A stretch of 27,469 bases of DNA from Planctomycetota bacterium (GTDB taxonomy: Bacteria > Planctomycetota > UBA11346), in assembly GCA_044353645.1 (NCBI GenBank), contig JBILBP010000001.1, positions 1 through 27,469 on the forward strand, read 5' to 3'. A model generated the notes under the pieces. It was given only the letters and a program-made list of their open reading frames with translations. It was not told the DNA's origin and searched no databases. A program made the position numbers and the translations under genes. Within the stretch, counting starts at the first letter, position 1. Each line of letters opens with the position of its first letter. This document shows positions 1,833-18,394 of this stretch, one piece after another.

Positions 1833-1956
1833 TGGGGACAGAGGCCTCCTTGCAGTCAGGTCGATAGGGGCGCGATGGACGAAGGGGTGTCCGTCACGAC
1901 GCTTGGTTGCCAATAGCGGTAATGCATGTTCCAGAAAACGAATTCAGGGCTTAGGC

Positions 1957-3339: not shown

Positions 3340-3404
3340 AATCCCGACTTTGCCCATGGCATTGCAACGATTCTCTCAATAATAGCCACGGAAAATGAAT
3401 CAGC

Positions 3405-5012
3405 ATGAAGCTTAGTATTCTCATCCCGACGCGCAATCGAGCGCGGTATCTGGCAAAGCTGTTGTCATCGGTTGCAATGGTCTCAGGCGACTTCGAATTC
3501 GTAATCTGCGACAATGCCTCCGTCGATCTGACGGCGAAAGTGTGCGAGTATTACGCTCAAAAATTTAATATACGTTATCAATATTTCCGTGACCTGGTGC
3601 CGGCAGGTGAGAATATATTGCGTGGAATGGCAATGGTCCAAGGCGATCACGTATGGATCATGGGTGATGATGATTTCATAAACCCGGAATTCCTCAGTGA
3701 ATATCTGGTCAGCCGGATCTGCCGCTGCGTGATCATGCCGCTTGCTGCCGACAAGCATTTGCAGCTTCAGGCCGATTGTGCGGATCAGGATCGATCCTCC
3801 GCACCGCTTTTGCCGCAAGTGCGCTTCGAATCGGCGTCAGCGGGTGCTGTATTCGAGAAGCTCGGGACCTGGATCACCTATCTGGGTGCGTTTATCTACG
3901 ATCGCCGGGAGCTCCTTGCCGGGTTGGAGGTGCATCTTGCTCCGGGAAAAATCCATGAGCTTTCCTTTGCTTATTTGAATATCGATATCATCAGTGAAGC
4001 ACCTTCGCTTCAGATGGTCTCCAATGCGATCGTTTACCGTGGCGACAACAGCGGTGGCTATTCCATGTTTGCAACGTGGGTTGGTCGCTTCTTCGACCTT
4101 TTGGAATATGCCCAAAGCAAGAAGATACCGGCGGTCGTCGTTGACCGTGTCAGGGTGGAGCACGAACAGAGATTTTTGCCGGCGATGGCAGTGAGCAGGC
4201 ATCTGGGTAGGGCTTTTTGTGAAGAATGCAGGATCGGGGCATTATGGTCTTCACCGCTGCGCGTGAAGACCAGGATCTGCTTGTGGGGCATCGCATTCGT
4301 CATGCGCATAATGCGGGTCGATCTCTCGCTCATGTGGGCAAGTGCTATCCGTTTGCGGCAACTATTGGCCAGTGACGGCCTGCTGGGGGCTGTGAGCTTG
4401 ACGTTTAAACATCTTTCTGCTGTCGGACGCGCATTCAGCCTGCGGTTGGCAGGTCTGCGATTGGCTTCGATTGGCGTCGAGTTCCGTATAAAGGGAAGGC
4501 GGCATATCCGCATCGGTAAATCATCGTCATTCGGTAGGCGCGTATGGCTTGAAGCAATAGCCAATCATCGTCGCAGCATCTATTCGCCCAAGATCAGCAT
4601 CGGAAGCGGGGTTTCTTTCAACGACGATGTCCATGTCGCGGCTGCAAGTGCCGTGAGTATCGGCGATGACTGCCTGTTGGGTTCGCGAATCATCGTGACC
4701 GACCACAACCATGGATCATACAGCCCAGTGCATGAATCCGATCCGCTGTCTCCCCCTTCAGAAAGAGCCTTGGTCGCTACTCCGGTGCACATCGGCGCGC
4801 GCACGTGGATCGGTGATGGGGTGGTCATCCTGCCCGGTACCATTATCGGCAGCGGCTCGGTGATCGGGGCGAACTCCGTGGTGAGGGGTCATTTTCCCGA
4901 AAATTCAGTGATCGTCGGCAGCCCGGCGAAGATGGTGAAAAGATACAGCTTCTTGACAGCGACATGGATGGCATCGGCAGGATTTCAGGATTTGAAGTGG
5001 GATGATCAATGA
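3405..5012 (+). CDS. Fusion: GT2 glycosyltransferase (RfbV/abequosyltransferase-like) plus C-terminal hexapeptide-repeat (LbH) O-acetyltransferase (WbbJ-like)
   Basis: The N-terminus is a GT-A fold (SILIPTRNR, ICDNAS, WIMGDDD). From about aa 300 it shows LbH acetyltransferase motifs (NDDVHVAAASAVSIGDDCLLGSRIIVTDHNHG, IGARTWIGDGVVILPGTIIGSGSVIGANSVV, GSPAK). There is no stop codon between the two parts. Confidence 0.85.
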   Translation: MKLSILIPTRNRARYLAKLLSSVAMVSGDFEFVICDNASVDLTAKVCEYYAQKFNIRYQYFRDLVPAGENILRGMAMVQGDHVWIMGDDDFINPEFLSEYLVSRICRCVIMPLAADKHLQLQADCADQDRSSAPLLPQVRFESASAGAVFEKLGTWITYLGAFIYDRRELLAGLEVHLAPGKIHELSFAYLNIDIISEAPSLQMVSNAIVYRGDNSGGYSMFATWVGRFFDLLEYAQSKKIPAVVVDRVRVEHEQRFLPAMAVSRHLGRAFCEECRIGALWSSPLRVKTRICLWGIAFVMRIMRVDLSLMWASAIRLRQLLASDGLLGAVSLTFKHLSAVGRAFSLRLAGLRLASIGVEFRIKGRRHIRIGKSSSFGRRVWLEAIANHRRSIYSPKISIGSGVSFNDDVHVAAASAVSIGDDCLLGSRIIVTDHNHGSYSPVHESDPLSPPSERALVATPVHIGARTWIGDGVVILPGTIIGSGSVIGANSVVRGHFPENSVIVGSPAKMVKRYSFLTATWMASAGFQDLKWDDQ

Positions 5013-6067
5013 TGATCGAACGTACTGCTTTGGCTCCTCTCACGATTACGGTGGCGATTCCGGCATATAATCGGGCTGCGGTACTGCCTGAATTGCTGGA
5101 TAGCATACTGGCGCAAGACAGCATTCCGGACGAGATCATCATCTGCGAAGACATGTCGCGTGAGCGAACGGCTATCCGTGAGGTCTGTGATCAGTACCGG
5201 AGCCTATTCGAGGCCCGGGGAATGCGGTTTTCACTATTCGAAAACGCGGAGAATTTCGGTTACGACAAGAATGTCAGAGAGGTGATCTCCCGTTCCAGTT
5301 GTGAATATGTCATTCTAATGGGCAATGATGACCGCATGTTCTCGAACTGCATTCAGCATGTGCGCGCGGCTTTGCTGGAATATCCGACGGAAGCACGCCC
5401 GGGTTTTGTGGGCAGGGCATATGCGAAATTCGATGAAAGAGGCAGGCGCAAGGGCCTGACGCGAATATGCAAGAATAATAGATTCCATTTGCCCGGAGCT
5501 GCCGAGGCCGGGACGATTTTTTCTTATTGTGCATTCGTAAGTGGTATCGTCTTCAATGTCGAGCGCGCCAAGGCCGCGCAGACTGCTATTTTCGACGGCA
5601 GTCTCTACTATCAGTACTATTTAGCGCTCTCCCTATCGAGAGTCAGTTCGGTGCTTTATCTTTCGACCCCGATCATCGAGGGGAGGATGAATAACCCCCC
5701 GGATTTTGGTAATGCCAATAATGAGAAGAAGATTTTCACGCCCGGTGGTTATGCAGCGACGGCGAGGATCGCGATGTGGTCGGGACTACTGACTATCACC
5801 AGGCACGTGTGCAGATCGTTGGCTGGGGACCAGGAAAAAAGCCTCCGACGAATGCTGGATAATCGATATTTCTTCCATATTGCCGAGATGGTCTCATTGC
5901 GTGGGCGTGGTGAATTGATCACGCTTTTCAGAGGTTTTTTCGGGCTTGGGCTCATGCGTACGCCTCTGTCTCTGGTGATCTTTTCCTTCGCGATAGTTTT
6001 CGGGAGAATGTCGAGGGTGGCATTTTCGGCTACGCGTTCGATCGCCAGTAATTTTTCGGGGTTTTAG
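5009..6067 (+). CDS. Glycosyltransferase family 2
   Basis: Motifs VAIPAYNR, IIICED, NFGYDKN, ILMGNDD. The start overlaps the upstream stop (ATGATG at 5009-5014). Sugar specificity cannot be determined. Confidence 0.88.
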   Translation: MMIERTALAPLTITVAIPAYNRAAVLPELLDSILAQDSIPDEIIICEDMSRERTAIREVCDQYRSLFEARGMRFSLFENAENFGYDKNVREVISRSSCEYVILMGNDDRMFSNCIQHVRAALLEYPTEARPGFVGRAYAKFDERGRRKGLTRICKNNRFHLPGAAEAGTIFSYCAFVSGIVFNVERAKAAQTAIFDGSLYYQYYLALSLSRVSSVLYLSTPIIEGRMNNPPDFGNANNEKKIFTPGGYAATARIAMWSGLLTITRHVCRSLAGDQEKSLRRMLDNRYFFHIAEMVSLRGRGELITLFRGFFGLGLMRTPLSLVIFSFAIVFGRMSRVAFSATRSIASNFSGF

Positions 6068-6161
6068 GATGTCTCTGGAGATCAATGCTCTTCGCGGTGA
6101 TTCTTCTCGACGTCACTTCGTCGGGGTATTGGCCGTCACTTCCAGTCAGACGTGGTGGTAG

Positions 6162-7289
6162 ATGCGCATCGCTATCGTGCATGAATGGTTCACTCAATGG
6201 TCCGGCTCGGAACAGGTGCTCGAGCAGATGCTGGCCTGTTTTCCGGAAGCAGATCTTTTTGCCGTTACCAGCAGTCCTGATCGGCAGGGAGCGCAGGTTC
6301 TAGGTGAGAGGAGGATCCGCACGTCATTTGTGCAGAAGTTGCCATTCGGACGCCGATTACCTCAGTTGTGGCTGCCAATTCTCCCATTGGCCATTGAACA
6401 ACTCGATCTTCGAGGCTATGATCTGGTCATTTCGAATAGTCATTGTGTGGCCAAGGGTGTCATCTGCAGCCCGTACACCCGTCATCTAGCCTATGTCCAT
6501 TCACCGATGCGCTATGCCTGGGATTTGCGCCAGGAATATGCCGCCAAATTGCCCTTCGTGGTTCGGTCGATATGGAACTATGCAATGCATCGATTGCGGT
6601 CTTGGGATGCGCTTTCTGCGATGCGTCCTGATGCCTTGGCTTGCAATAGCCATTATATCGCCTCGCGAATCCGTCATGCCTGGAATCGCCCATCCACGGT
6701 CATCTACCCGCCGGTCGATGTCGCGTCCTTCTCCCCCGGTGGGGGTGAGCGGGACGATGTTTATATTTCGGTTTCGCGGATGGTTCCCTATAAGCGTATG
6801 GTGGTCATCGCCCGTGCCTTCTCGCGGATGCCCAAGCGGACCCTCCACATGATTGGTACCGGCAGTGAGTATCGCGAGATCCAGGAGATCGCTGCCAAGC
6901 ACAAGAACATTCGATTGCTGGGGCATGTCTCGCGTGCGGATCTGATCTACCGGCTCGGTCGGGCGCGGGCATTCATATTCGCCGCCGAAGAGGATTTCGG
7001 TATTGCTCCGGTCGAAGCCCAGGCATGTGGGACGCCGGTAATCGCCTTTGCCCGCGGAGGTGCCACCGAATCGGTCATACCGGGAGTGACCGGCTTGTTT
7101 TTCCATGAACAATCGGAGTCCGCTATCATTGAGGCGGTGGATGAATTTGAGCAAAGGGCATCATTCGATCCGGATGAATGCCGAAAAAATGCCGAGGCAT
7201 TTTCAATTGTGATGTTCAGGGAGCGATTCCTTGCCTGGGTTTCGGCGAATGCACCTCTATCGGAAGTCGCGCAGTCGCATCGGCGCTAG
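6162..7289 (+). CDS. Glycosyltransferase family 4, WbaZ-like (probable mannosyltransferase)
   Basis: RIAIVHEWF...GSEQVLE, YVHSPMRYAWD, SRMVPYKR and EEDFGIAPVEAQACGTPVIAF (GT-B E-x7-E motif). These match the WbaZ-type GT4 pattern. Confidence 0.9.
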   Translation: MRIAIVHEWFTQWSGSEQVLEQMLACFPEADLFAVTSSPDRQGAQVLGERRIRTSFVQKLPFGRRLPQLWLPILPLAIEQLDLRGYDLVISNSHCVAKGVICSPYTRHLAYVHSPMRYAWDLRQEYAAKLPFVVRSIWNYAMHRLRSWDALSAMRPDALACNSHYIASRIRHAWNRPSTVIYPPVDVASFSPGGGERDDVYISVSRMVPYKRMVVIARAFSRMPKRTLHMIGTGSEYREIQEIAAKHKNIRLLGHVSRADLIYRLGRARAFIFAAEEDFGIAPVEAQACGTPVIAFARGGATESVIPGVTGLFFHEQSESAIIEAVDEFEQRASFDPDECRKNAEAFSIVMFRERFLAWVSANAPLSEVAQSHRR

Positions 7290-7319
7290 GTCACCACTTA
7301 TTATGGATGTTTCCATTAA

Positions 7320-8747
7320 ATGAAAATGTCTGGTTCGGTATTGGCGCGCCTGTTACCACGGTCTGCTTCGGCTGGATTGCTTCTAACATCCGACTTATTG
7401 TCCACTTGCTTAGCAAACCGGTTCGCAGTGACGATGCGTGATTGGCTAGGCGGGGCGGTGGTCTTGCATGCGCATTTCGTTTTATGGCCATTTTTGATCA
7501 TATTTGCCGTGGTGTTTGCCTGGCAGCGTCTGTATCAGGTGGCGGGGCTTAATCCCGCCAATGAAATTCGTAGTGTCGTATGGAGCTCGAGTCTAGTGTT
7601 CCTGCTGGTCATGGGCGCGGCGTTCCTCGTCCAGTCGGAAAACCAGATATCTCGAGGCGCACTCGTGCTTGGTGCCGTGGGAACCATCTTGTTGGTGCTG
7701 TGTTCGCGCTACCTACTTCGGGGCTGGTTGTCGCGATATGACTGGTGGGGTGAACCTGTATTGGTATTGGGTGCGGGTTTGACCGGTCAATCTGTGGTGC
7801 GTCGATTGCGCGAAGCTCGTTATCTGGGGTGGCGGCCGGTGGCCATTTTGGATGACGACGTGCAGCATCACGGACGGGAGTATTCGGGAGTACCGGTATT
7901 GGGGTGCCTTGCGGACGCACCGATCCTCGCCGGTTCCATGCATCTGCGTAGTGTCATCGTGGCCATGCCCGGGGTGTCGATGGAGCGCCTGAGAATCCTT
8001 GAGCAGCAATGTTCGAAAGTTTTTCCTCAGGTGATAATTCTCCCGAGCTTTTGTGGTTATGCTTCTTTGTGGGTGCGTCCACAGGATCTCGGCGGCATCC
8101 TCGGACTGGAAGTGCAGCGTAATTTACTGAGGGTTTGGCCGCGCTTTGGTAAGCGTTTCTTCGATCTGTTCTGTTGTGTCTGGGGTCTATCGGTACTCAT
8201 CCCCTTGACCATCTTGATCGCCTTCCTGATCAAGGTCTCTTCACCCGGGCCGGTGTTCTACAGCCAAGAGCGCATCGGCCGCAATGGACGTTCTTTCAGA
8301 GCCTGGAAATTTAGATCGATGGTTAAGGATGCTGACACCGTGCTGCAGCATTATTTTCATGCCCATCCCGAATTGCGTGCGGAATGGGAGCGCGATCATA
8401 AATTGCGTGATGATCCACGGGTGACCTTCATCGGTGGCTTTCTGCGCAAAACGAGTTTGGATGAGTTGCCGCAGGTATGGAATGTCTTCCGTGGGGATAT
8501 GAGCTTGGTCGGGCCAAGGCCGATTGTTCATGCGGAAATTGCCAAATATCACGATCTATTTGATCTGTATGTCCATGTCCGTCCGGGAATAAGTGGTCTT
8601 TGGCAGGTTTCTGGGCGTAATGATACGACTTATGATGAACGGGTGATGCTCGATGTCTCCTATGTGCGCAACTGGTCGATCTGGTTGGACGCGTGGATTC
8701 TCATACGTACGATTCGGGTGGTCATCTTGGGTAGGGGGGCGTATTGA
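7320..8747 (+). CDS. wbaP: Undecaprenyl-phosphate hexose-1-phosphate transferase (WbaP-like initiating enzyme)
   Basis: N-terminal TM helices and a central Rossmann-like segment (LVLGAGLTG...LDDD). The C-terminal phosphoglycosyl transferase domain has [40 protein letters not shown] and [13 protein letters not shown]. Gal versus Glc specificity is not provable from sequence. Confidence 0.9.
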
Positions 8748-8903
8748 AGCGAAACTTGCACCAGATGCTCAGGCATGAACGCTCGCTCCAAGATCGCTTG
8801 GAATTTCAGTCTTTCGAATACTGCCGAGATGGAGACGGCTCCTCCGGTTGAGTGACGACAGGGTTATGATGCTGGCCGCTCAACCTTGCTGCTCAATCAA
8901 ACT

Positions 8904-8941
8904 CCGCTTAGGGCTGACGACCTCCGGCGTCAGCCTGGCGG
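8904..8941. other. GC-rich inverted repeat/hairpin in the wbaP-rfbF spacer
   Basis: GGCTGACG (8912-8919) pairs perfectly with CGTCAGCC (8928-8935), and the stem is extended by CCGC (8904-8907)/GCGG (8938-8941). There is no plus-strand T-tract, so its function is unknown. Confidence 0.5.
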
Positions 8942-9158
8942 AACGTATCTATCTGACCGCCACCCCTTGCGTCCTCTGCGTCTCGTCGATTTTTTCGAGT
9001 GGCCTTCTCCGCCACGGAGGGTCGTAGGGTTGCAAAGTCGCTGTTGGAGCCCACGCAAAATGGTCTCATACACTTTCCCTCGTGGCCCTTGGTAACAGTC
9101 GATGAGTGGCCAAGCCTCCTTGTCCATCATCCATCCCCGCCTAACCTTCTTCGCACCT

Positions 9159-9932
9159 ATGAAAGCAGTCATCCTCGCCGGCGGTATGGGCACGCGGATC
9201 AGCGAAGAATCGTCCGTGCGTCCCAAGCCGATGATCGAAATCGGGGGGAAGCCGATCCTTTGGCACATCTTGAAGGGATACGGACAGCATGGCATTACCG
9301 ATTTCATCATTTGCTGCGGCTATAAGGGCTACGTCATCAAGGAGTACTTCGCCAACTACTTCCTGCATATGTCCGATGTGACCTTTGATATGCAGCATAA
9401 TCAGATGGTAGTCCATCAGCGTCACGCTGAGCCGTGGCGGGTGACCTTGGTCGATACCGGTGAGCAGACCATGACCGGTGGGCGCATCCGTCGCATCCTG
9501 CCCTATGTTAAGGATGAGGAGGCATTCTGCCTGACCTACGGCGATGGGGTGGGCGATGTCGATATCTCCGCCCTGGTCGCCTTCCATCGGGCGCAGAAGA
9601 CCTTGTGCACGCTGACCGCGGTTCAGCCGCCGGGGCGTTTCGGGGCCTTGGCGATCGATCAGCATCAGCGCATCGTCTCCTTCCAAGAGAAGCCACAGGG
9701 CGATGGCAGCTGGATCAATGGCGGTTTCTTCGTCTGTTCTCCGCAGGTCATCGGGCGCATTGCCGGGGATGGCACTATCTGGGAGCGCGAACCGATGGAA
9801 TCACTGGCGCGTGACGGACAGATGAGCGCCTTCCACCATCGGGGGTTCTGGCAGCCCATGGACACCCTGCGCGACAAGCTGTTGCTCGAGGACTTGTGGG
9901 CCAAGGACCAGGCTCCTTGGAAGGTCTGGTAA
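9159..9932 (+). CDS. rfbF: Glucose-1-phosphate cytidylyltransferase
   Basis: [75 protein letters not shown]. The start is placed at the ATG of MKAVIL (9159), not 9102. Confidence 0.97.
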
Positions 9933-11035
9933 TGTTCGGCGGCGTCTTCAAGGGCCGGCGGGTCCTGCTCACTGGCCACACCGGTTTCAAAGGTTCCTGG
10001 CTGAGCCAATGGCTCATCGAGCTGGGAGCCGAGGTCCATGGCCTGTCGTTGGCGCCCGATACCGCTCCGGCGCTGTTCGAGGTGCTCGGCTTGGAGCAGC
10101 GCCTGGCCTCGCACCGCCTCGCGGACGTGCGCGATATGGCGGCGGTGCAGGCGATATGCGTCGCCATACAGCCCGAGGTGGTCTTCCACATGGCGGCGCA
10201 GCCTTTGGTGCGCCTGTCCTATCGCGAGCCCGCCGCTACCTGGGCGACCAACGTACAAGGTACCATCCATGTCCTGGAGGCGGTGCGTCGTCTTGCCTGT
10301 GTGCGTGCCTGCGTGGTGGTGACCTCTGATAAATGCTATGAGAACCGTGAGCAGCTGTGGGGGTATCGCGAAGCTGATGCGATGGGTGGCCATGACCCGT
10401 ATTCGTCCTCGAAGGGCGCTGCGGAGATGGCCGTTGCCAGCTGGCGGCGGTCCTTCTTCCACGATCCGAGCGGTGCCCGGCTGGCATCGGGACGAGCCGG
10501 GAATGTCATTGGCGGCGGCGACTGGTCAGCCGACCGCATCGTCGTCGACTTCGTCCGCGCGATGGTCGCCGGACAGCCGCTGTCCCTGCGCAATCCCGGC
10601 GCGATTCGCCCATGGCAGCATGTGCTGGAGCCCCTCTCGGGCTACTTGCTGCTGGCCGCCAAGCTCTTGCATGCAGAAGGCGCGGGCTTTGCCGAAGGTT
10701 GGAACTTCGGCCCCGGCGATGCCAGCGTGGCCACGGTCAAGGAGCTTGCCGACCTCTTGGTGCGTGCATGGGGCTCGGGCTCGGTCGAGGCTCCACTGCA
10801 GATCGGGCAACCCCATGAAGCCCATCTGCTCAAGCTGGATGTGAGCAAGGCCCGCGCCCTGCTGGGCTGGACAGGCATCTGGGACGTGCGGCGGACGGTT
10901 GCCGAGACCGTTCACTGGTACAAGGCCCACCATCAGGGGAGCGAGGATCTGTCCGCCCTGACCCGTCGTCAAATCGCCGATTATGCCCATGATGCCCGCC
11001 GTGCTGGCCTGGCCTGGGCTGGCGATGCCGGTTAG
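9932..11035 (+). CDS. rfbG: CDP-glucose 4,6-dehydratase
   Basis: LLTGHTGFKGSWL, HMAAQPLVRLSY, TSDKCYEN, DPYSSSKG, RAGNVIGGGDW, RPWQHVLEPLSGY, WNFGP. It is coupled to rfbF by a TAATG overlap (9930-9934). Confidence 0.97.
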   Translation: MFGGVFKGRRVLLTGHTGFKGSWLSQWLIELGAEVHGLSLAPDTAPALFEVLGLEQRLASHRLADVRDMAAVQAICVAIQPEVVFHMAAQPLVRLSYREPAATWATNVQGTIHVLEAVRRLACVRACVVVTSDKCYENREQLWGYREADAMGGHDPYSSSKGAAEMAVASWRRSFFHDPSGARLASGRAGNVIGGGDWSADRIVVDFVRAMVAGQPLSLRNPGAIRPWQHVLEPLSGYLLLAAKLLHAEGAGFAEGWNFGPGDASVATVKELADLLVRAWGSGSVEAPLQIGQPHEAHLLKLDVSKARALLGWTGIWDVRRTVAETVHWYKAHHQGSEDLSALTRRQIADYAHDARRAGLAWAGDAG

Positions 11036-11104
11036 GCTTCTTTCGGGGGCCTTGGCGGCTTCCCTTGCCCGGGTTTTTAAACTCAACGAGATGCCAATAT
11101 TTCC

Positions 11105-12484
11105 ATGACTGATCGCCTTGCACAACTCCGCGCCGAGATCCTCGTCAAGACCCGGGAGCTCATCAGCCTCCGTGAGGTTCCGCAGCCATTCATCCCCGGA
11201 CAGACGACGGTCCCCTATGCCGGTCGCGTCTACGATGCCGACGAGGTCGAGGCTGGCGTCGACAGCATGCTCGATTTCTGGCTGACCTTGGGCAAGCATG
11301 GTGATGCGTTCGAGAAGGAATTTGCAGCGCTCCTCGGGGTGCGTTCGTGCATCCTGACCAACAGCGGAAGTTCAGGCAATCTCTTGGCCTTCGCCGCGCT
11401 CACCAGTTACAAGCTCGGGGAGCGGCGGATCCGCCCAGGCGATGAAGTCATCACCGCCGCCGCCGGCTTCCCGACGACCGTGTCGCCGATCATCCAGAAT
11501 GGCTGCATCCCGGTCTTCGTCGATGTCGATCCGAGCACCATGGGGCCGCGTGTCGATCAGCTCGAAGATGCCTATGTCCGGGGCCGGACCAAGGCGGTGA
11601 TGATCGCCCACGCCCTCGGCAATCCATTCGATCTCGGTGAGATCACGCGCTTTTGCCGCGACAAGGGGCTATGGCTGATCGAAGACAACTGCGATAGTCT
11701 CGGCAGCCGCTATGACGGCCAGCTGACCGGTACCTTTGGCGATCTTTCCACGCAGTCCTTTTACCCGCCGCATCATCTCACGCTCGGCGAAGGCGGCTCG
11801 ATCAATGTCGTGCGCGATCCCAAATTGCGGGTGATCGTCGAAAGTTACCGTGACTGGGGCCGCGACTGCTGGTGCCCCTCGGGCAAAGACGATACCTGCC
11901 GCAAGCGCTTCGAATGGCAGCTCGGCGAGCTGCCCAAGGGCTACGATCACAAGTACATCTACAGTCACATCGGCTGGAATCTCAAGCCGCTCGATCCGCA
12001 GGCCGCCATCGGCCGTCAGCAGCTGAAGAAATTGCCGGGTTTCATCCAGGCGCGGCGGGACAATTGGGAAGCTCTGCGGCGCGGTCTGAGCGGGCTCGAG
12101 GACCGTCTCGAATTCATGCTCCCGACCCACGCTACCGCCTGGTCGCCGTCGGGTTTCTCGTGGCAGCCCGGCAAGCCGGTGGTCGAGCCGAGCTGGTTCG
12201 GCTTCATGATGCTGGTGAAGGGTGGCCCGCAGGCCCGCACCGCCTTGGCCAGGGCCCTCGATACGGCCCGCATCGGCAATCGCATGTTCTTCGGCGGCAA
12301 TCTCGTACGCCAGCCGGCCTTCGTCCAGCTCAAGGCCGATACCTTGGGCAGCGGCTACCGGGTGATCGGCGATCTCGCGGGTGCCGATCGGGTCATGAAC
12401 GAATCGTTGTTCGTCGGTACCTACCCCGGTCTGCGTCCAGAGCATATCGCGCACATTGTCAGCACCGTACGCGAGGCTTGCTGA
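11105..12484 (+). CDS. rfbH: CDP-4-keto-6-deoxyglucose 3-dehydratase (E1; RfbH/DdhC/AscC), PMP- and [2Fe-2S]-dependent
   Basis: NSGSSGNLLA, AAGFPTTV, AHALGNPF, EDNCDSLG. SFYPPHH carries His in place of the aminotransferase Lys. WGRDCWC-x7-C is the Fe-S motif, followed by YDHKYIYSHIG. Confidence 0.95.
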   Translation: MTDRLAQLRAEILVKTRELISLREVPQPFIPGQTTVPYAGRVYDADEVEAGVDSMLDFWLTLGKHGDAFEKEFAALLGVRSCILTNSGSSGNLLAFAALTSYKLGERRIRPGDEVITAAAGFPTTVSPIIQNGCIPVFVDVDPSTMGPRVDQLEDAYVRGRTKAVMIAHALGNPFDLGEITRFCRDKGLWLIEDNCDSLGSRYDGQLTGTFGDLSTQSFYPPHHLTLGEGGSINVVRDPKLRVIVESYRDWGRDCWCPSGKDDTCRKRFEWQLGELPKGYDHKYIYSHIGWNLKPLDPQAAIGRQQLKKLPGFIQARRDNWEALRRGLSGLEDRLEFMLPTHATAWSPSGFSWQPGKPVVEPSWFGFMMLVKGGPQARTALARALDTARIGNRMFFGGNLVRQPAFVQLKADTLGSGYRVIGDLAGADRVMNESLFVGTYPGLRPEHIAHIVSTVREAC

Positions 12485-12541
12485 GCGCATATGACTTCTT
12501 TCGCCCCCGCTCATCCCGATCATTCGGGGCAGTGAGATGTC

Positions 12542-13429
12542 ATGAGCAAGTATCCGATTGCGATCCTGGGATCAGGCAACATTGGCACTGATCTGCTGGT
12601 GAAATGCCAGCGTTCGGAAGTCTTGGAATGCGTGGCCTTCGTTGGCCGCAGCTTCACTTCCTCAGGGATGGTTAAGGCTCAATCCCTGGGCGTTACCTGT
12701 TCGGATCAGAGCATACACTACATCAGAAAGCATCAGCGCGACATCAAGCTGGTGTTCGATGCGACTTCCGCCAAAGATCACCACGTTCACGCGCCAATCC
12801 TCAAAGACCTGGGCATCACCGTCGTCGATCTGACGCCGGCGCATATCGGCCCGATGTGCGTTCCAGGAGTGAACATGAGCGCCTCGCTCGGCGAGGGAAA
12901 CCTCAACATGGTCACCTGCGGTGGACAGGCCTCGATCCCCATCGCCTACGCTATCGGTCAGACCCAGGGCGCGGTTGAATACATCGAGGTCGTCTCGAGC
13001 ATCGCCTCGCGCAGCGCCGGCCCGGCGACCCGTGCCAACCTTGACGAATACATTGCTACCACCGAGGCCGGTATCCGGCTGTTCTCGGGAGCGGCCAACG
13101 CCAAGGCGATCCTCAACCTCAATCCGGCGGTCCCCTGTATCGACATGCAGACGACGATCTTCGCCAAGGTCGCCCGGCCGGATCTGCCCGCTCTCCAGAG
13201 GGCTGTGACAGAGATGGTGGTGCGCATAGCCGCATATGTTCCTGGTTATCAGCTGCTGATGGCTCCGCGACTGGACGACGGGCGTCTGGTGGTCATGGTC
13301 AAGGTCCGCGGGCTGGGCGACTATCTGCCTGAATACGCGGGGAACCTCGACATCATCAATTGCGCGGCGATCGCCATTGCCGAAGAGCACGCACGCCACT
13401 ATCGGCATCGGCAAGGAGCCACCCCATGA
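12542..13429 (+). CDS. dmpF: Acetaldehyde dehydrogenase (acylating), DmpF/MhpF family
   Basis: [34 protein letters not shown] (catalytic Cys), [29 protein letters not shown]. Confidence 0.94.
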
Positions 13430-14457
13430 CCGAGCGTATCCTCATCTGCGATCCCAGTCTGCGGGATGGCAACCATGCCGTCGCGCATCAGCTCAGCCAC
13501 GAACAGGTGCGCGCTTATTGCCTAGCTGCGGATCGGGCCGGGATCCCCATCGTCGAAGTCGGCCATGGCAATGGTCTGGGGGCATCATCGCTGCAGGTCG
13601 GTCTGGCGAAGACCGCGGATGCGGTGATGTTGAAAACTGCCCGCGAGGCATTGCGTAACAGCAAGCTCGGCATTCATGTGATTCCGGGTTTCGCGACCAT
13701 CGAACGCGACCTCAAGCCGGCCATCGACTATGGCGTGGATGTGTTCCGGATCGCCGCCCATTGCACCGAGGCCGATATCACCGAACGCCATATCCGTTTC
13801 TGCCGCAACCAGGGCAAGACGGTTTTTGGCGTCTTGATGATGTCGCACATGGCCGATGTCCCCACGCTCTGCGATGAGGCGCGCAAGATGGAAGGGTACG
13901 GTGCCGAAGCGATCATCATCATGGACTCCTCGGGCACCTATCTGCCTGAAGATGTCAGCGAACGAATCGCAGCCCTGCGTGCCGGGCTGAGCATACCTGT
14001 CGGTTTCCATGGTCATAATAATCTGGGCATGGCGGTGGCCAATTCAGTGGCGGCGGTCCGTGCCGGCGCCTCCATATTGGATGCCTGCGCGCGTGGTTTT
14101 GGCGCAGGTGCGGGCAATACCCAGATCGAGGCCTTGGTGGCGGTGCTCGAACGGATGGGCATTCCGACCGGTATCGACCTCTATGCCCTGCTCGATGCCG
14201 CTGACCTTGCCGAAGCGCAGTTGATGAAGGAGGTGCCGGCGATCAGATCGCTCAGCATCGTCAGTGGCTTGTCCGGGGTCTTCTCGGGCTTCGCCAAGCC
14301 AGTGCAGCGCATTGCTGCCGAAACCGGCGTCGACGCCCGTGACATCTTCTTCGAACTCGGGCGGCGCAAGGTCGTAGCCGGCCAGGAGGATCTCATCCTG
14401 GAGGTGGCCCAGGAGCTGGCCTGTCATCAGCGCGCCGCAAGCGGAGTCAGGAGATGA
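13426..14457 (+). CDS. dmpG: 4-hydroxy-2-oxovalerate aldolase, DmpG/MhpE family
   Basis: [34 protein letters not shown] (metal-binding HxH), GAGAGN, and the C-terminal communication domain ([15 protein letters not shown]). The start at 13426 is an ATGA overlap with dmpF. Confidence 0.94.
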
Positions 14458-15488
14458 AAAGCACGCGGGCGCAGATTGTCAGCGGCGATTGCGAACGGGT
14501 CTATGCAAGTGCCGGCCAATCACTGCAGGGCCTGGCCGGGGCCTCGATCACGGTCACCGGCGGTACCGGCTTCATGGGTGCGTGGATCCTCGAGCTGATC
14601 GCCTACCTCAATGCCCGTCAGGGCATGGGCATAACGGTGACGGCGCTGGCCCGGGACAGCGGACGGTTGATCGCCGCCATGCCGCACATCGCTCATTTGC
14701 CGTGGCTTTGCCTGCAGCGCAACGACGTGCGTACCCTCGGCGAAATGCCGAAGAATACTTCGCATATCATCCATGCGGCCGGGGATCCAGATTCACGCAG
14801 CCATGCGTCGCGACCGGTGGAGACCATGCGGGTGATCGCTGAAGGGGCTGCGGCGGTGATCGCCGCCGCTCAGCGTCTCGGCCATCTGCGGCAGATCCTC
14901 AATGTCAGTTCGGGGAATATCCCCCATACCGGAACGGCTCTGCCGGGTGATCTGGCACGCACGGTCAGCGCCCCGTATGTCGAAGCCAAACGCTATGCGG
15001 AGACGCTTTTCCAGGCCGCCCGTAGTGAATTGCGTCTGCCGGTGGTGCAGGTTCGCCCGTACAGCTTTCTCGGCCCCTATCAGCAGGCGGATGCACCGTG
15101 GGCGGCGAATGCATTTCTGCGTGATGCCATGTGCGGACGGGCGATCCGCATCCTCGGAGATGGTGAAAGTATCCGTACGGTCATGTATGGGGCCGACCTA
15201 GCGATGTGGATGCTGGTGATGTTGGAGCAAGGCCGGGATGGCATGACCTATAGCGTCGGCGCGGATACCGGTCACAGTATGAAGTCCATTGCCCAAGCGG
15301 TCGCCGACCAGTTTCATCCCCGGCCGGCAATCCTCCTTAATTGCGCTCTCGCCGGTGCACCCACGAAGACCTGCTATGTGCCAGATCTTTCGGCGGTGCG
15401 TCAGGCGCTCAACCTGCGTACCTATACTGATCTGGCCACCGCCGTGGCCCATTACCAGTTGTGGCTTGAAGCCCCGGCGGACGCCTGA
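14454..15488 (+). CDS. NAD(P)-dependent epimerase/dehydratase/reductase (extended SDR)
   Basis: VTGGTGFMG (GxxGxxG), IIHAAG, NVSSG, YVEAK (YxxxK), RPYSFLGP. It has an ATGA overlap with dmpG and AGGAG immediately upstream. Confidence 0.87.
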
Positions 15489-15521
15489 CGGCCCCGTCGA
15501 TCGATCAATCCGAGTGAACCT

Positions 15522-17333
15522 ATGAAAATCAAATGCAGCGATCTGTTGGCGAACTTCCTGGCCGAGAAACAGGTCACGACTACCTTCGGCATCACCGGTT
15601 CAGCGATTGCGCACGTCTTTGATTCGATCGGCAACCTCGGTAAGACGGAGATCATCTGCGTCCATCATGAACAGGCGGCATGCATGGCCGCACAGGGTTA
15701 TTTCAGGACGCGGGGCACGCCGACGGTGGCCATCGTCACCGCTGGTGGCGGGTCGAGCAATGCCATCACCGGTGTCTTGTCGGCATGGATGGATTCGCTG
15801 CCGTTGCTGGTCATCTCCGGCAATGAAAACGCCAAGTTTACCTATGAAGACAACCCACTGCGCATCTGGGGCGTGCAGGGCTACGATTCGACGGCGATGG
15901 TGCAGAAGATCACCAAGCATGTGATTCGTGTGATGGACCCGACTATGATCATCTATGAGCTGGAGAAAGCCTGGCAGATCGCTACCAGTGGGCGGCCGGG
16001 GCCGGTGTGGATTGATATCCCGATGAGCGTCCAGGGTAGCTTCGTTGAGGAGGCCGAAATAAAGCGCTATGCTCCAGTCTCCGTGCCGCAGACTGCAGTC
16101 ACGCAGATCCGCCAGCTCGACCTCGTCGCGGATCTGCTGCGTCAGGCCAAGCGACCGGTCCTGTGGCTGGGCAACGGCATCCGCCATGCCGGATTTGTAC
16201 CGCAATTGGCGGACTTCCTGGCGCGGATCGAAGTGCCTAGCCTGGTAACCTGGGCGATGATCGATGCCCTCGATCCCCACCATCCTATGAATTTCGGACG
16301 TGCCGGTGTCTATGGTCAGCGCTCGGCGAACTTCGTTTTGCAGAATGCCGACCTGCTCATCACCATCGGCACGCGCATGCCGCTCCAGCAGGTGGGTTAC
16401 GATATCAGCGAACTGGCGCGGACGGCGAAGATCGTGGTCGTTGATATCGATGAAATAGAGCTGGCAAAATATGCTCAACGCTATGACGTTTCGATTTGCG
16501 CCGATGCTGGCGAATTCATGCGCGGCCTCATCGCGACCCTCGGGCGCCAGGCCGCCTCGCCGGAGTGGCTCGCGTCCTGCAATGACTTCCGCAGCCGCTA
16601 TCCGATCATCGGACCGGAGCACAACGACATCGGTGACTTCATCAATTCCTACCGCTTCATGGAGCGCCTGAATCGGCATTTCCACGAGGATCAGGTTGTA
16701 TGTACCGATGCCGGCACGGCGTTGCTGTCTGGGCATCAGGTACTGCAGATGAAACCTGGGCAGATGTTGTTCACCTCGCTCGGCCTCGGGGAGATGGGCT
16801 ATGGCCTGCCAGCAGCTATCGGTGCGGCATTCGGTCGTGGACGCAAGGAGGTCTTGTGTCTTAATTGCGACGGAGGGATGATGATGAATTTGCAAGAGCT
16901 GCAGACCATCGTCCACCATCGGCTGCCGGTGAAGATCATCATCTTCAACAATGACGGTTATCTGATGATCAAGCACACCCAGAATGCGATGTTCCATGGA
17001 CGTCGCTATGGCGTGGATCAGCGTTCAGGGGTGAGCTGCCCCGATTTCAGCAAGTTGGCCGCGGCCTTCGGAATCAAGGCTTTGCAGATCAATGTTTGGG
17101 ATGATGTGGATCCGGTCCTGACGCAGCTGCAGCAGGATCAGGGGCCGGTCATCTGCGAAGTCCGTATGCATCCCGATCAGATGATGCTTCCTAAGCTCTC
17201 GCTGGCGATGCGTGCAGACGGCAGCCTGGTCTCACCGCCGTTGGAGGATCTCAGCCCGTTGCTCCCGCGTGCCGAATTGGAGCGCAACATGCTGATCGGC
17301 ATGCACGAGAAATCCAGGCAGCTCAAACCTTGA
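15522..17333 (+). CDS. Thiamine-diphosphate-dependent enzyme (acetolactate-synthase-like fold; YerE-like carboligase candidate)
   Basis: HHEQAACMAA (catalytic Glu), TAGGGSSNAITG, GRPGPVWIDIP, GLGEMGYGLPAAIG, and the ThDP/Mg motif CDGG-x-NN. The fold assignment is strong; the YerE-like role is inferred from context. Confidence 0.9.
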   Translation: MKIKCSDLLANFLAEKQVTTTFGITGSAIAHVFDSIGNLGKTEIICVHHEQAACMAAQGYFRTRGTPTVAIVTAGGGSSNAITGVLSAWMDSLPLLVISGNENAKFTYEDNPLRIWGVQGYDSTAMVQKITKHVIRVMDPTMIIYELEKAWQIATSGRPGPVWIDIPMSVQGSFVEEAEIKRYAPVSVPQTAVTQIRQLDLVADLLRQAKRPVLWLGNGIRHAGFVPQLADFLARIEVPSLVTWAMIDALDPHHPMNFGRAGVYGQRSANFVLQNADLLITIGTRMPLQQVGYDISELARTAKIVVVDIDEIELAKYAQRYDVSICADAGEFMRGLIATLGRQAASPEWLASCNDFRSRYPIIGPEHNDIGDFINSYRFMERLNRHFHEDQVVCTDAGTALLSGHQVLQMKPGQMLFTSLGLGEMGYGLPAAIGAAFGRGRKEVLCLNCDGGMMMNLQELQTIVHHRLPVKIIIFNNDGYLMIKHTQNAMFHGRRYGVDQRSGVSCPDFSKLAAAFGIKALQINVWDDVDPVLTQLQQDQGPVICEVRMHPDQMMLPKLSLAMRADGSLVSPPLEDLSPLLPRAELERNMLIGMHEKSRQLKP

Positions 17334-17355
17334 TGATGGTGGATCGGGCAACCTG

Positions 17356-18333
17356 ATGCAAATCGCACTGCTGGGATCGACAAGTCATGTGGCCAAGGCG
17401 ACCATGGAGTACCTGCGTCGGCGGGCGACGCTCACCCATGTCGCCCGCGACCCCCAGCGTGTTCGCGTCCACCTCGAGCGATTCGGTGGTGACGATGTCG
17501 CGGAGCACCAACGCATCTTGAGTTTCGAGGAGTTTGCTGCCTCTCAGATGGTGTTCGATGCGATCATCAATTGCGTGGGTTTCGGAACCCCCGAAAAGGT
17601 TGCCGCCGCCGGCTTAGACCTGTATCGGCTCACCGAGCGCATGGATGAATTATGCCTGTCCTATCTTGAGAGGAATCCGCAGACGGTATTCGTCAATTTT
17701 TCAAGCGGTGCTGTATATGGGACGGCGCATGAGGCCTTGATTGGACCCGCTGCTGTTTTTACCATGGAGCTGAATCAGCCCCGCGAATCGGACCACTACC
17801 GTCTCGCTAAATTGCATTGCGAGCGCAAGCACCGTGCTTGGCAATCTGCTTCGATTATCGATCTCCGGTTGTTCGGCTTCTTTTCCAAGCATATCGACTT
17901 GTCGTCACGATATCTCATCTGCGAGATCGTGCGCAGCATCCGTGACAGGAAGATCTTCGTCACCGATGACAGCGACATCATCAGGGATTTCGTTCATCCA
18001 CGGGATCTTGCTGAGCTGATGTTGCGTGCGGCTGCGAAAAAAGGGCTCAATATCGCTCTGGATGTGTTCAGTAGTGCCTATCTGAAAAAATCTGAATTGC
18101 TCGCCGTGGCCAAGCAAAAGTTCGGCTTGCAGGTCGAGATCGTATCCTCGCCGCTGAACATTTCTCCTACCGGATCAAAGAGTTTCTATGCCAGCGGAAA
18201 CTTTGCGGCCACCGGAAAGATCGGCTATAATCCGCAGTGGTCTTCGATCGAGGCGGTGATCGACCAGATATCGCAGACGCTCGCACCGAGTACGCGGACC
18301 TCGCGGCGCGGGACCGATGGCGGGAATCAGTAG
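17356..18333 (+). CDS. NAD(P)-dependent epimerase/dehydratase family protein (divergent SDR)
   Basis: Degenerate nucleotide-binding loop (LLGSTSHVA), IINCVGFG, NFSSGAVYG, YRLAK (YxxxK), LRLFGFF, RDFVHPRDL. Confidence 0.8.
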   Translation: MQIALLGSTSHVAKATMEYLRRRATLTHVARDPQRVRVHLERFGGDDVAEHQRILSFEEFAASQMVFDAIINCVGFGTPEKVAAAGLDLYRLTERMDELCLSYLERNPQTVFVNFSSGAVYGTAHEALIGPAAVFTMELNQPRESDHYRLAKLHCERKHRAWQSASIIDLRLFGFFSKHIDLSSRYLICEIVRSIRDRKIFVTDDSDIIRDFVHPRDLAELMLRAAAKKGLNIALDVFSSAYLKKSELLAVAKQKFGLQVEIVSSPLNISPTGSKSFYASGNFAATGKIGYNPQWSSIEAVIDQISQTLAPSTRTSRRGTDGGNQ

Positions 18334-18394
18334 ACGCGTCAGTTTATCATACGTGCCTTGACTACCGCGGTCCGACAGGCTCCTCGTGATGACC

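Follow-up and report, generated by a model that had tools for sequence, protein, structure and literature searches.

Gene content of the locus

The DNA analysed here (the window, 27,469 nucleotides) is read on the forward strand of contig JBILBP010000001.1 in assembly GCA_044353645.1, a lake or freshwater Planctomycetota MAG (UBA11346) of 2.83 Mb that is 77% complete. Its features are listed below, with identities to the erwiniose cluster of Pectobacterium atrosepticum SCRI1043 where these were computed.

1774..8747, + strand: glycan-assembly genes for a Wzx-like flippase, a GT2-hexapeptide fusion, GT2 and GT4 proteins and a WbaP-type initiating phosphoglycosyl transferase (NF041503; Glycos_transf_2, Hexapep, Glycos_transf_1, Bac_transf)
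9159..9932, + strand: ddhA/rfbF, glucose-1-phosphate cytidylyltransferase, yielding CDP-glucose (TIGR02623, 453.6 bits versus a cut-off of 300; 65% identity to P. atrosepticum DdhA)
9932..11035, + strand: ddhB/rfbG, CDP-glucose 4,6-dehydratase (TIGR02622, 467.7 bits versus a cut-off of 278; 49% identity to P. atrosepticum DdhB)
11105..12484, + strand: ddhC/rfbH, E1-type PMP and iron-sulfur CDP-6-deoxy-4-ketohexose 3-dehydrase (NF011936 RfbH, 625.7 bits versus a cut-off of 423)
12542..13429, + strand: dmpF/erwJ-type acylating acetaldehyde dehydrogenase, read as an acetyl-CoA reductase (TIGR03215; 60% identity to ErwJ)
13426..14457, + strand: class II pyruvate aldolase of the dmpG/erwI type, with a communication domain and interpreted as a 4-hydroxy-2-oxopentanoate synthase (TIGR03217; 63% identity to ErwI)
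14454..15488, + strand: SDR1, extended nucleotide-sugar-type SDR, translationally coupled to dmpG (Pfam Epimerase, 89.8 bits)
15522..17333, + strand: JanthE-type, YerE-like ThDP carboligase, predicted to use the keto acid (three TPP_enzyme domains; 761.8 bits to 8RPH)
17356..18333, + strand: SDR2, ErwF/YerF-like reductase (Pfam Epimerase, 59 bits; 34% identity to ErwF)
26117..27376, + strand: Wzy_C membrane protein of the O-antigen ligase/polymerase family (PF04932, 80.4 bits)

The original prediction placed dmpF and dmpG within a nucleotide-sugar operon, and this is where they lie: between ddhA/ddhB/ddhC and the ThDP carboligase gene, in a Wzx/Wzy glycan locus. We read ddhA from the ATG at 9159 (the TIGR02623 match begins at residue 20 of the ORF at 9102), and ddhB likely starts at the ATG at 9932, sharing TAATG with the ddhA stop codon. 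An ATGA overlap, preceded by AAGGAG, joins the end of dmpF to the start of dmpG, and the dmpG stop overlaps the SDR1 start at 14454 likewise as ATGA, in agreement with the translational coupling of dmpG to a sugar SDR claimed earlier. A TTG at 13360 was considered as the dmpG start and rejected in favour of the ATG at 13426. In a promoter and terminator scan of 8600-18700, sites were no commoner than in shuffled sequence.

In the ddhC product (46% identity to its counterpart in the P. atrosepticum locus), the iron-sulfur cysteines C196, C255, C257 and C265 and the His-His pair 223-224 are invariant among six cassette homologues. With Pectobacterium DdhD as query, the electron-donating E3 component had no match in the window or in the genome, whose 77% completeness leaves its absence unproven; a linked ddhD occurs in only 23 of the 86 loci of this kind.

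Intact dmpF and dmpG without catabolic partners

DmpF (295 amino acids) scores 377.5 bits against TIGR03215 (cut-off 282) and 165 bits against the Pfam family AcetDehyd-dimer (PF09290); its Cys126 aligns with the catalytic Cys132 of the DmpF reference and is invariant. DmpG (343 amino acids) scores 382.3 bits against TIGR03217 (cut-off 286), 147 bits against HMGL-like (PF00682) and 89.5 bits against DmpG_comm (PF07836). Its Arg13, Asp14 and His17, together with His195 and His197, align with Arg17, Asp18, His21, His200 and His202 of DmpG in 1NVM, and the metal ligands and catalytic Arg and His are invariant across 77 glycan-locus and 14 catabolic sequences. Both genes are therefore intact as originally described: dmpF has both of its domains, the catalytic Cys and a score over the curated cut-off, and dmpG has its HxH metal site and communication domain.

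Because both proteins exceed the NCBI equivalog cut-offs for catabolic enzymes, and all named homologues are called 4-hydroxy-2-oxovalerate aldolase, automated annotation would mislead here, as had been anticipated. Taken at face value, these scores favour an ordinary catabolic DmpFG pair, from a meta-cleavage or steroid lower pathway, that reached a glycan locus by chance or misassembly, and upstream catabolic genes may be absent from an assembly that is 77% complete. The surroundings of the pair point the other way. When every large ORF of the window was scanned against Pfam and NCBIfam, no dioxygenase, hydrolase or FAA-hydrolase-type hydratase was found, in line with the earlier claim that the window lacks a ring-cleavage dioxygenase, a hydrolase and a 2-oxopent-4-enoate hydratase; the matches were confined to families of nucleotide-sugar enzymes, glycosyltransferases, Wzx, Wzy_C and APS kinase. 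In all seven catabolic loci tested, the upstream ORF is an FAA-hydrolase-type hydratase, whereas no hydratase lies upstream here. Proteins over the DmpG and DmpF cut-offs occur in single copy in the whole MAG, in which DmpE (TIGR03220) and catechol 2,3-dioxygenase (TIGR03211) were not found, although at 77% completeness their absence is unproven. The start/stop overlap with the neighbouring SDR gene also argues against a chance insertion, and a near-identical contig of a second MAG (proteins 98-99% identical) keeps the same gene order, on which ground misassembly was rejected.

Distribution and phylogeny of the cassette

We compared 80 genome loci, namely those encoding the closest relatives of the ThDP enzyme (54-67% identity), from about 15 phyla. 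Both dmpF and dmpG are present in 74 of them, and in a further two dmpF lies where the contig ends; the same cassette was seen in loci of Anaeromyxobacter, Marinomonas, Holophaga, Janthinobacterium and Pectobacterium. Its cultured carriers include Flavobacterium aquidurense DSM 18293, Leptospira ilyithenensis and Janthinobacterium sp. HH01. A homologue of SDR1 follows dmpG in nearly all loci, including that of Pectobacterium (36% identity). Horizontal transfer is probably how the cassette was gained.

One branch of the DmpG tree (SH-aLRT 99) gathers all 48 rows of glycan context, among them the window, ErwI and Janthinobacterium sequences, and the catabolic-context rows all fall outside it. 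One sequence, L104, was left out after the first DmpG tree (branch length 10), and the wider DmpG tree, with 112 rows, comes from a quick search with SH-aLRT support only. The DmpF tree splits 78 sequences from 15 with support of 99 and places the window DmpF in the glycan clade. Whether the dmpFG of glycan loci form a clade apart from catabolic ones, the check suggested at the outset, is thus answered alike by both trees, which separate them. An ordinary catabolic pair is already contradicted by this phylogeny and by an arrangement shared by 74 of 80 loci in about 15 phyla, and we regard it as scarcely credible.

Residues at the stereochemical and cofactor sites

In the aldolase BphI, Leu87 and Tyr290 flank C4 of the substrate; the wild-type enzyme is strictly 4S, and the L87N/Y290F variant is 4R-specific (PMC3962088). 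At these positions the window DmpG has His84 and Phe286. The same His/Phe pair occurs in all 77 glycan-locus DmpG sequences, in ErwI and in 244 of the 246 nearest homologues, while Leu/Tyr occupies the positions in all four solved aldolases and in 14 of 14 catabolic aldolases (a small comparison set with verified context, from Gammaproteobacteria only). From these residue identities, the product of the glycan-clade aldolase is probably the 4R enantiomer. The engineering of BphI used Asn or Trp at position 87, where the glycan-locus enzymes have His instead.

The cofactor site of DmpF differs between the two groups as well. An acidic residue ending the second Rossmann strand is the usual mark of NAD preference. 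In the window DmpF this strand is followed by Gly35-Arg36-Ser37, and the acidic residue is missing; Arg36 is present in 77 of 77 glycan-locus sequences (typically as Gly-Arg-Asn/Ser), with Asp at position 37 in only one, versus Ile/Val-Asp in all five solved structures and in 15 of 15 catabolic sequences. By the general rules of Rossmann folds, Arg without Asp suggests that glycan-locus DmpF uses NADPH. We found no description of the His/Phe (DmpG) or Gly-Arg-Asn/Ser (DmpF) signatures in the literature cited here.

The ThDP carboligase and the two SDRs

The ThDP enzyme matches PF02776, PF00205 and PF02775, and its scores against the acetolactate-synthase NCBIfam models all lie below cut-off. 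It aligns at full length with JanthE (PDB 8RPH; 761.8 bits) and carries a CDG motif at residues 449-451 that is common to 79 of 82 cassette ThDP enzymes; to ErwE, which has GDG in place of CDG, it is only 31% identical. ErwE accepts 4-hydroxy-2-oxopentanoate, uses the R enantiomer and rejects pyruvate (PMC9306805), and JanthE accepts 4-hydroxy-2-oxovalerate, pyruvate and other donors, its physiological substrates being stated as unidentified (PMC12188165). Encoded two genes and about 1 kb downstream of dmpG, at 15522-17333, and not named as a consumer in the original prediction, the window enzyme is predicted to use the keto acid made by DmpG, with the CDP-4-keto-3,6-dideoxyhexose from ddhABC as acceptor. 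Since identity to ErwE is only 31% and JanthE also takes pyruvate, this choice of donor rests on gene context.

The two steps might also occur in the opposite order, the ThDP enzyme, like YerE, first using pyruvate to attach an acetyl branch and the aldolase then extending the resulting sugar methyl ketone with acetaldehyde from DmpF. The DmpG pocket in 1NVM is small and buried and opens into the channel to DmpF, with no room for a CDP-sugar, and the pyruvate- and metal-binding residues (Arg, Asp, His, HxH) are invariant in glycan-clade DmpG. A JanthE-type enzyme beside dmpFG in 74 of 80 loci would, moreover, be hard to explain if pyruvate sufficed. These points make the opposite order very improbable in our estimation, even though JanthE, the solved relative of the window enzyme, accepts pyruvate (PMC12188165) and the experiment that excludes this order was performed on ErwE, at only 31% identity to the window enzyme (PMC9306805). 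We continue with the keto acid as the donor.

SDR1 conserves GGxGFxG, Ser152/153 and Tyr175-x3-Lys179. Its predicted structure (pLDDT 91.5) has its best Foldseek match, at a TM score of 0.82, in an NADP-dependent CDP-sugar reductase of C. jejuni, but dehydratases, epimerases, decarboxylases and reductases score alike, and the class is set only as nucleotide-sugar extended SDR. SDR2, which has the YxxxK motif, aligns with ErwF at 34% identity over 312 residues (E 1.5e-58) and probably reduces the branch ketone.

A proposed pathway to a branched CDP-sugar

We read the eight genes at 9159-18333 as an erwiniose-type cassette that would make a CDP-linked 3,6-dideoxyhexose with a four-carbon branch on C-4, and put the probability of this reading at roughly 85%. 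The gene identities, catalytic residues, synteny, separate clades and residue signatures it draws on were observed here; for the donors that ThDP enzymes of this kind prefer, and for what the two positions that set stereochemistry do, it draws on the literature on ErwE, JanthE and BphI. From these we infer which way the flux runs, which enantiomer and cofactor are involved, what the two SDRs do and how the final sugar is built.

CDP-4-keto-3,6-dideoxy-D-glucose would come from DdhA, DdhB and DdhC acting together with an electron donor encoded elsewhere. DmpF would reduce acetyl-CoA to acetaldehyde, probably with NADPH, and the aldehyde would be channelled to DmpG for condensation with pyruvate to 4-hydroxy-2-oxopentanoate, probably 4R. 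The JanthE-type enzyme would then decarboxylate this keto acid and transfer the resulting 3-hydroxybutanoyl group onto the sugar's C-4 ketone, the loss of CO2 driving the two reversible dmpFG steps forward. SDR2 (ErwF-like) would reduce the branch ketone, SDR1 may carry out a further redox or epimerisation step on the CDP-sugar, and the finished sugar would enter a Wzx/Wzy-type surface polysaccharide.

The dmpFG pair very probably runs in the synthetic direction. The proposed route, from acetyl-CoA by reduction to acetaldehyde and on, through condensation with pyruvate, to 4-hydroxy-2-oxovalerate as a building block, is supported by the published erwiniose scheme, by identities of 60% to ErwJ and 63% to ErwI, and by their shared clade. 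The original prediction that catabolic enzymes had been put to work in reverse therefore stands as regards direction but needs revising as regards the enzymes: rather than simply a catabolic pair reversed, the two belong to a subfamily apart, widely distributed and marked by distinct residues at the stereochemical and cofactor sites.

Chain length is not fixed by the sequence, and DmpF might reduce propionyl-CoA, or both acyl-CoAs, with DmpG making 4-hydroxy-2-oxohexanoate and the sugar gaining a five-carbon branch. The catabolic BphI/BphJ use both acetaldehyde and propanal. ErwE converts 4-hydroxy-2-oxohexanoate better than 4-hydroxy-2-oxopentanoate (76% versus 49%; Table 1 of PMC9306805), and in BphI it is Leu89 that limits aldehyde length, L89A admitting longer aldehydes (PMC3962088). 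The corresponding residue in the 77 glycan-locus DmpG sequences is nevertheless bulky (Ile in 60, Met in 17), which indicates a pocket that is not enlarged, and erwiniose, 3,6,8-trideoxy-4-C-(1-hydroxyethyl)-D-gulo-octose, the one natural product from a cassette of this type whose structure is solved, has a four-carbon unit (PMC9306805). The longer branch is unlikely on this evidence, and we retain the four-carbon one.

Taken jointly, the observations allow a more specific interpretation, which we advance tentatively and hold at slightly under even odds. The glycan-locus pair would constitute a distinct anabolic subfamily, a natural 4R-specific aldolase with an NADPH-dependent acetyl-CoA reductase, whose mostly CDG-bearing, JanthE-type partners would have (R)-4-hydroxy-2-oxopentanoate and CDP-4-keto-3,6-dideoxyglucose as native substrates. 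SDR1 would add a step absent from the published scheme, so that most cassettes may end in a sugar other than erwiniose. Seen in this light, the His/Phe pair would be nature's counterpart of the L87N/Y290F switch in BphI.

Implications for annotation and biocatalysis

Proteins that score above cut-off with the equivalog models of meta-cleavage aldolase and dehydrogenase appear to serve as sugar-branching enzymes, here and in many other phyla, and calls of aromatic or steroid degradation made on these models alone would for that reason be wrong. A possible annotation rule would set His/Phe against Leu/Tyr in DmpG, and Arg without Asp against Ile-Asp in DmpF; among the sequences examined, each pair tells the two uses apart without exception. 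Should the signatures have the meaning proposed here, the subfamily would be a natural source of pyruvate aldolases selective for 4R and of acyl-CoA reductases linked to NADPH, and the cassette points to probable native substrates of JanthE-type carboligases, now being developed as biocatalysts. A further prediction is that this freshwater Planctomycetota bears on its surface a rare deoxysugar with a long branch.

Comparison with known systems

The mechanism is already published: Steitz et al. (2022) proposed and partly tested for Pectobacterium a route in which ErwJ and ErwI convert acetyl-CoA to acetaldehyde and, with pyruvate, to 4-hydroxy-2-oxovalerate as a glycan building block (PMC9306805), and the present locus adds a case from the genome of a lake Planctomycetota. 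The Erw reference proteins were taken from the SCRI1043 locus reached through protein CAG74339. The two loci share ddhA/B/C (65, 49 and 46% identity), the acylating acetaldehyde dehydrogenase (ErwJ, 60%), the DmpG-type aldolase (ErwI, 63%, with His/Phe as well), a ThDP carboligase, the YerF-like reductase (ErwF, 34%) and the extra SDR after the aldolase gene (36%). They differ in gene order (J-I-SDR1-E-F in the window, E-F-J-I-SDR in Pectobacterium), in the lineage of the ThDP enzyme (JanthE-type with CDG here, ErwE with GDG there), in the linked E3 (ddhD) and HpcH/HpaI aldolase genes that Pectobacterium has and the window locus lacks, and in the host, a freshwater Planctomycetota MAG.

JanthE of Janthinobacterium sp. 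HH01 (8RPH, 8RPI and 8RPJ; PMC12188165) has the CDG motif in common with the window ThDP enzyme. It has been studied as a biocatalyst, and gene context suggests its native substrates: a Janthinobacterium locus (ThDP enzyme at 1020 bits to JanthE) contains ddhABC, the ThDP gene, dmpF, dmpG, SDR1 and an SDR.

The catabolic complexes DmpG/DmpF (1NVM), BphI/BphJ and HsaF/HsaG (4JN6) share with the window pair, at about 40-48% identity, the fold, domains, catalytic Cys, metal ligands, Arg/His pair and communication domain, and the window pair presumably forms the same channelling complex. It differs from them in its separate clade, in His/Phe in place of Leu/Tyr and Arg-Asn/Ser in place of Ile-Asp, in having no hydratase or ring-cleavage neighbour, and in a predicted flux opposite to that of the catabolic DmpG/DmpF.

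The branching step itself has a close parallel in yersiniose A of Y. pseudotuberculosis, in which YerE and YerF act on the same acceptor sugar by ThDP-dependent acyl-anion addition at the C-4 ketone and subsequent SDR reduction (PMC9306805); YerE, however, takes pyruvate directly and makes a two-carbon branch, and hence no aldolase-dehydrogenase pair is required. The caryophyllose and gastriose clusters of mycobacteria (MMAR_2331 with MMAR_2332; MygI/MygE) differ in the aldolase, MMAR_2331 having reported homology to the aldolase/citrate-lyase family rather than the DmpG type, and no acyl-CoA reductase partner is described for them. Their branches are longer (C6 and C7), but they follow the same logic as that proposed here: a hydroxylated 2-keto acid is assembled by an aldolase and then passed to the sugar by a YerE-like enzyme.

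Locus structure and integrity of dmpF and dmpG

The window spans one entire contig of a 2.83-Mb MAG (423 contigs; 77% complete), and profile scans of its ORFs place every gene from 27 to 18333 on the + strand. Both dmpF and dmpG are intact, as originally predicted, with products above the NCBI equivalog cut-offs (DmpF, 377.5 bits to TIGR03215 against 282; DmpG, 382.3 bits to TIGR03217 against 286). The predicted catalytic Cys of DmpF is Cys126, and DmpG has the HxH metal site and catalytic residues (Arg13, Asp14, His17, His195 and His197, aligning with Arg17, Asp18, His21, His200 and His202 of 1NVM) together with the communication domain, found by domain scan. The dmpG start (ATG at 13426) shares an ATGA overlap with the dmpF stop and is preceded by AAGGAG; a second ATGA overlap, between the dmpG stop and the start of SDR1, bears out the proposed translational coupling to a sugar SDR.

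Features of the window
from 27, + strand: PglF/WbpM-like dehydratase, first gene of the + strand run
within 27-18333, + strand: Wzx-like flippase
within 27-18333, + strand: three glycosyltransferases, one with a fused hexapeptide acyltransferase
within 27-18333, + strand: WbaP-type initiating transferase
9159-9932, + strand: ddhA
9932-11035, + strand: ddhB
11105-12484, + strand: ddhC (E1)
12542-13429, + strand: dmpF (TIGR03215)
13426-14457, + strand: dmpG (TIGR03217)
14454-15488, + strand: SDR1, an extended SDR
15522-17333, + strand: ThDP enzyme
17356-18333, + strand: SDR2, a second SDR
downstream of 18333: gmd and a GDP-sugar reductase/epimerase
20661-21299: APS kinase, between the gmd and rml operons
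downstream of 18333: GT2, rmlBDCA and a Wzy_C protein

The gene neighbours settle what this locus is: the product of ddhA/B/C, CDP-4-keto-3,6-dideoxy-D-glucose, is the acceptor of YerE-class ThDP carboligases. The predicted absence of a ring-cleavage dioxygenase, hydrolase or hydratase held in the window ORF scans, and the MAG contigs (77% complete) contain no second DmpF/DmpG copy, DmpE or catechol 2,3-dioxygenase.

Elsewhere in the window, a single 535-aa ORF (3405-5012) has a GT2 glycosyltransferase domain in its N-terminal part and a hexapeptide-repeat acyltransferase domain in its C-terminal part. With an APS kinase gene inside the glycan locus, the polysaccharide may be sulfated, but the scanned ORFs matched no sulfotransferase family.

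The SDR motifs of SDR1 are intact, and in almost every locus its gene comes after dmpG. In its structure model (pLDDT 91.5), SDR1 looks like nucleotide-sugar SDRs with several different activities, and the top TM-score is to a CDP-sugar NADPH reductase. Loci without a gene like erwF (the Pectobacterium atrosepticum counterpart of SDR2) usually have a second SDR1 paralogue adjoining the ThDP gene, which suggests that the cassette normally includes two SDR steps. E1 keeps its four iron-sulfur cysteines; its reductase partner, E3 (DdhD), was found neither in the window nor in the MAG (77% complete). Just 23 of 86 loci have a linked E3, so another reductase probably serves. The window E1 also carries an insertion of about 16 residues (residues about 345-360) that is missing from five other aligned cassette E1 proteins.

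Distribution and phylogeny of the cassette

A Planctomycetota contig of a lake metagenome series (L009) encodes proteins 98-99% identical to those of the window. Many phyla are represented among the 120 nearest DmpG homologues (69-89% identical), with three (Anaeromyxobacter, Marinomonas and Holophaga) found in the same cassette. Both dmpF and dmpG are present in 74 of the 80 genome loci with the closest ThDP-enzyme relatives, across about 15 phyla; in two more dmpF lies at a contig end, one is too short to judge, and three (L011, L047 and L075) have neither gene within the sequence covered. These three combine ddh genes with a ThDP enzyme like, or related to, JanthE (from Janthinobacterium sp. 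HH01); they may be relatives of the yersiniose type, using pyruvate, or may receive their donor from elsewhere. The Anaeromyxobacter paludicola locus (L006; AP025592.1, 302937-323956) has two different ThDP enzymes, of 584 and 595 aa, on either side of ddhB/ddhC and dmpFG, and may make two branched sugars.

Of 300 Gammaproteobacteria sampled, 15 have a DmpG relative at 35-45% identity, which in 14 belongs to a dmpF-dmpG pair lacking ThDP and ddh genes; one genome is of cassette type, at 62%, with no identities in between. All seven ORFs tested upstream of the gammaproteobacterial pairs encode hydratases of FAA-hydrolase type.

Phylogenies separate glycan-locus from catabolic sequences. In the DmpG tree, which also includes 50%-identity cluster representatives, a single branch (SH-aLRT 99, length 0.39) holds every one of the 48 glycan-context rows, among them the window, ErwI (the P. 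atrosepticum DmpG) and Janthinobacterium, and all catabolic-context rows fall outside it; the DmpF tree splits 78 from 15 with support of 99. Branching inside the glycan clade is at odds with organismal phylogeny (the window DmpG groups with a Myxococcota sequence). Among 251 Planctomycetota genomes sampled, DmpG occurs only in the window genome and one of the same genus, a pattern that suggests the cassette has moved horizontally.

Residue signatures of the glycan-locus enzymes

After the second Rossmann strand, DmpF reads Gly-Arg-Asn/Ser in 77 of 77 glycan-locus sequences, against Gly-Ile/Val-Asp in 15 of 15 catabolic sequences and five solved homologues. Loss of the acid with gain of an Arg generally marks NADPH use in Rossmann folds, and glycan-locus DmpF would by this rule use NADPH, which would match a reductive, biosynthetic role.

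Only 8 of 343 positions tell glycan from catabolic DmpG, and two of these are the stereo positions. [quoted passage not shown] The aligned residues are His84 and Phe286 in the window; His and Phe occupy this site in all 77 glycan-locus DmpG, ErwI and 244 of 246 nearest homologues, as against Leu and Tyr in 14 of 14 catabolic DmpG and four solved aldolases. The His/Phe pair is consistent with the demonstrated use by ErwE, the P. atrosepticum ThDP enzyme, of the R enantiomer of 4-hydroxy-2-oxopentanoate (PMC9306805). We found neither signature described in the literature searched.

A third large DmpG-like class (L104:1887-2864, from gammaproteobacterial genome G095, and representatives P0163-P0270) has Tyr where the catalytic His21 would be, and its two stereo positions are Phe and His; its members are mostly 620-710 aa, with a C-terminal half lacking any Pfam match. 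The L104 gene has no dmpF partner and lies about 7 kb from a DegT-type aminotransferase gene. Another protein, P0121 (419 aa), shares 59% identity with the window DmpG; it is a DmpG-type aldolase with a phosphopantetheine-binding (carrier protein) domain fused at its C-terminus and Phe at both stereo positions.

The ThDP enzyme and the order of steps

The window ThDP enzyme has just 31% identity to ErwE. Its score to JanthE (PDB 8RPH) is 761.8 bits, and it shares the unusual CDG motif of that enzyme, a motif found in 79 of the 82 ThDP enzymes from such cassettes. In a Janthinobacterium locus with a ThDP enzyme scoring 1020 bits to JanthE, the genes are ddhABC, that ThDP gene, dmpF, dmpG, SDR1 and a further SDR. 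JanthE takes pyruvate, longer keto acids and 4-hydroxy-2-oxovalerate, and its physiological substrates are stated as not identified in the JanthE engineering paper; the gene context suggests 4-hydroxy-2-oxopentanoate and CDP-4-keto-3,6-dideoxy-D-glucose as the native substrates of JanthE-type enzymes.

The steps might also run in reverse, with the ThDP enzyme adding a pyruvate-derived branch first and the aldol step following. ErwE does not accept pyruvate (PMC9306805); the published exclusion of the pyruvate-first order does not automatically extend to the JanthE-type enzyme of the window. We nevertheless rate the pyruvate-first order as unlikely, because the residues of DmpG that bind pyruvate and metal do not vary across the glycan clade, and the DmpG pocket, as known from 1NVM, is small and buried.

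Loci with ErwE-type ThDP enzymes (GDG motif; L107, the P. atrosepticum SCRI1043 erwiniose locus, and L008, L031 and L105) have an HpcH/HpaI-family aldolase gene directly adjoining, besides dmpFG. This aldolase, undiscussed for the erwiniose cluster in the main text of PMC9306805, may point to an additional keto-acid donor or an additional branched sugar.

HpcH/HpaI-family aldolase genes beside ErwE-type ThDP genes
L107:5549-6331
L008:12091-12831

Comparison with the erwiniose pathway

In the O-antigen region of P. atrosepticum SCRI1043, ErwJ (acetaldehyde dehydrogenase) and ErwI (pyruvate aldolase) adjoin ErwE (ThDP) and ErwF (reductase) (Steitz et al. 2022, PMC9306805). In the published scheme, ErwJ converts acetyl-CoA to acetaldehyde, ErwI condenses this with pyruvate to 4-hydroxy-2-oxopentanoate, ErwE joins the product to the keto sugar, and reduction by ErwF gives erwiniose (PMC9306805). 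The window proteins are 65, 49 and 46% identical to DdhA, DdhB and DdhC of P. atrosepticum, SDR2 is 34% identical to ErwF, and SDR1 is 36% identical to a 351-aa SDR encoded after erwI, which the main text of PMC9306805 does not discuss. On sequence alone, the acyl-CoA reduced by DmpF may be acetyl-CoA or propionyl-CoA. This precedent, with the identities of DmpF to ErwJ (60%) and of DmpG to ErwI (63%), supports the original prediction that acetyl-CoA is turned into acetaldehyde and condensed with pyruvate to give 4-hydroxy-2-oxovalerate as a building block; the mechanism is the one already published for erwiniose rather than a new one.
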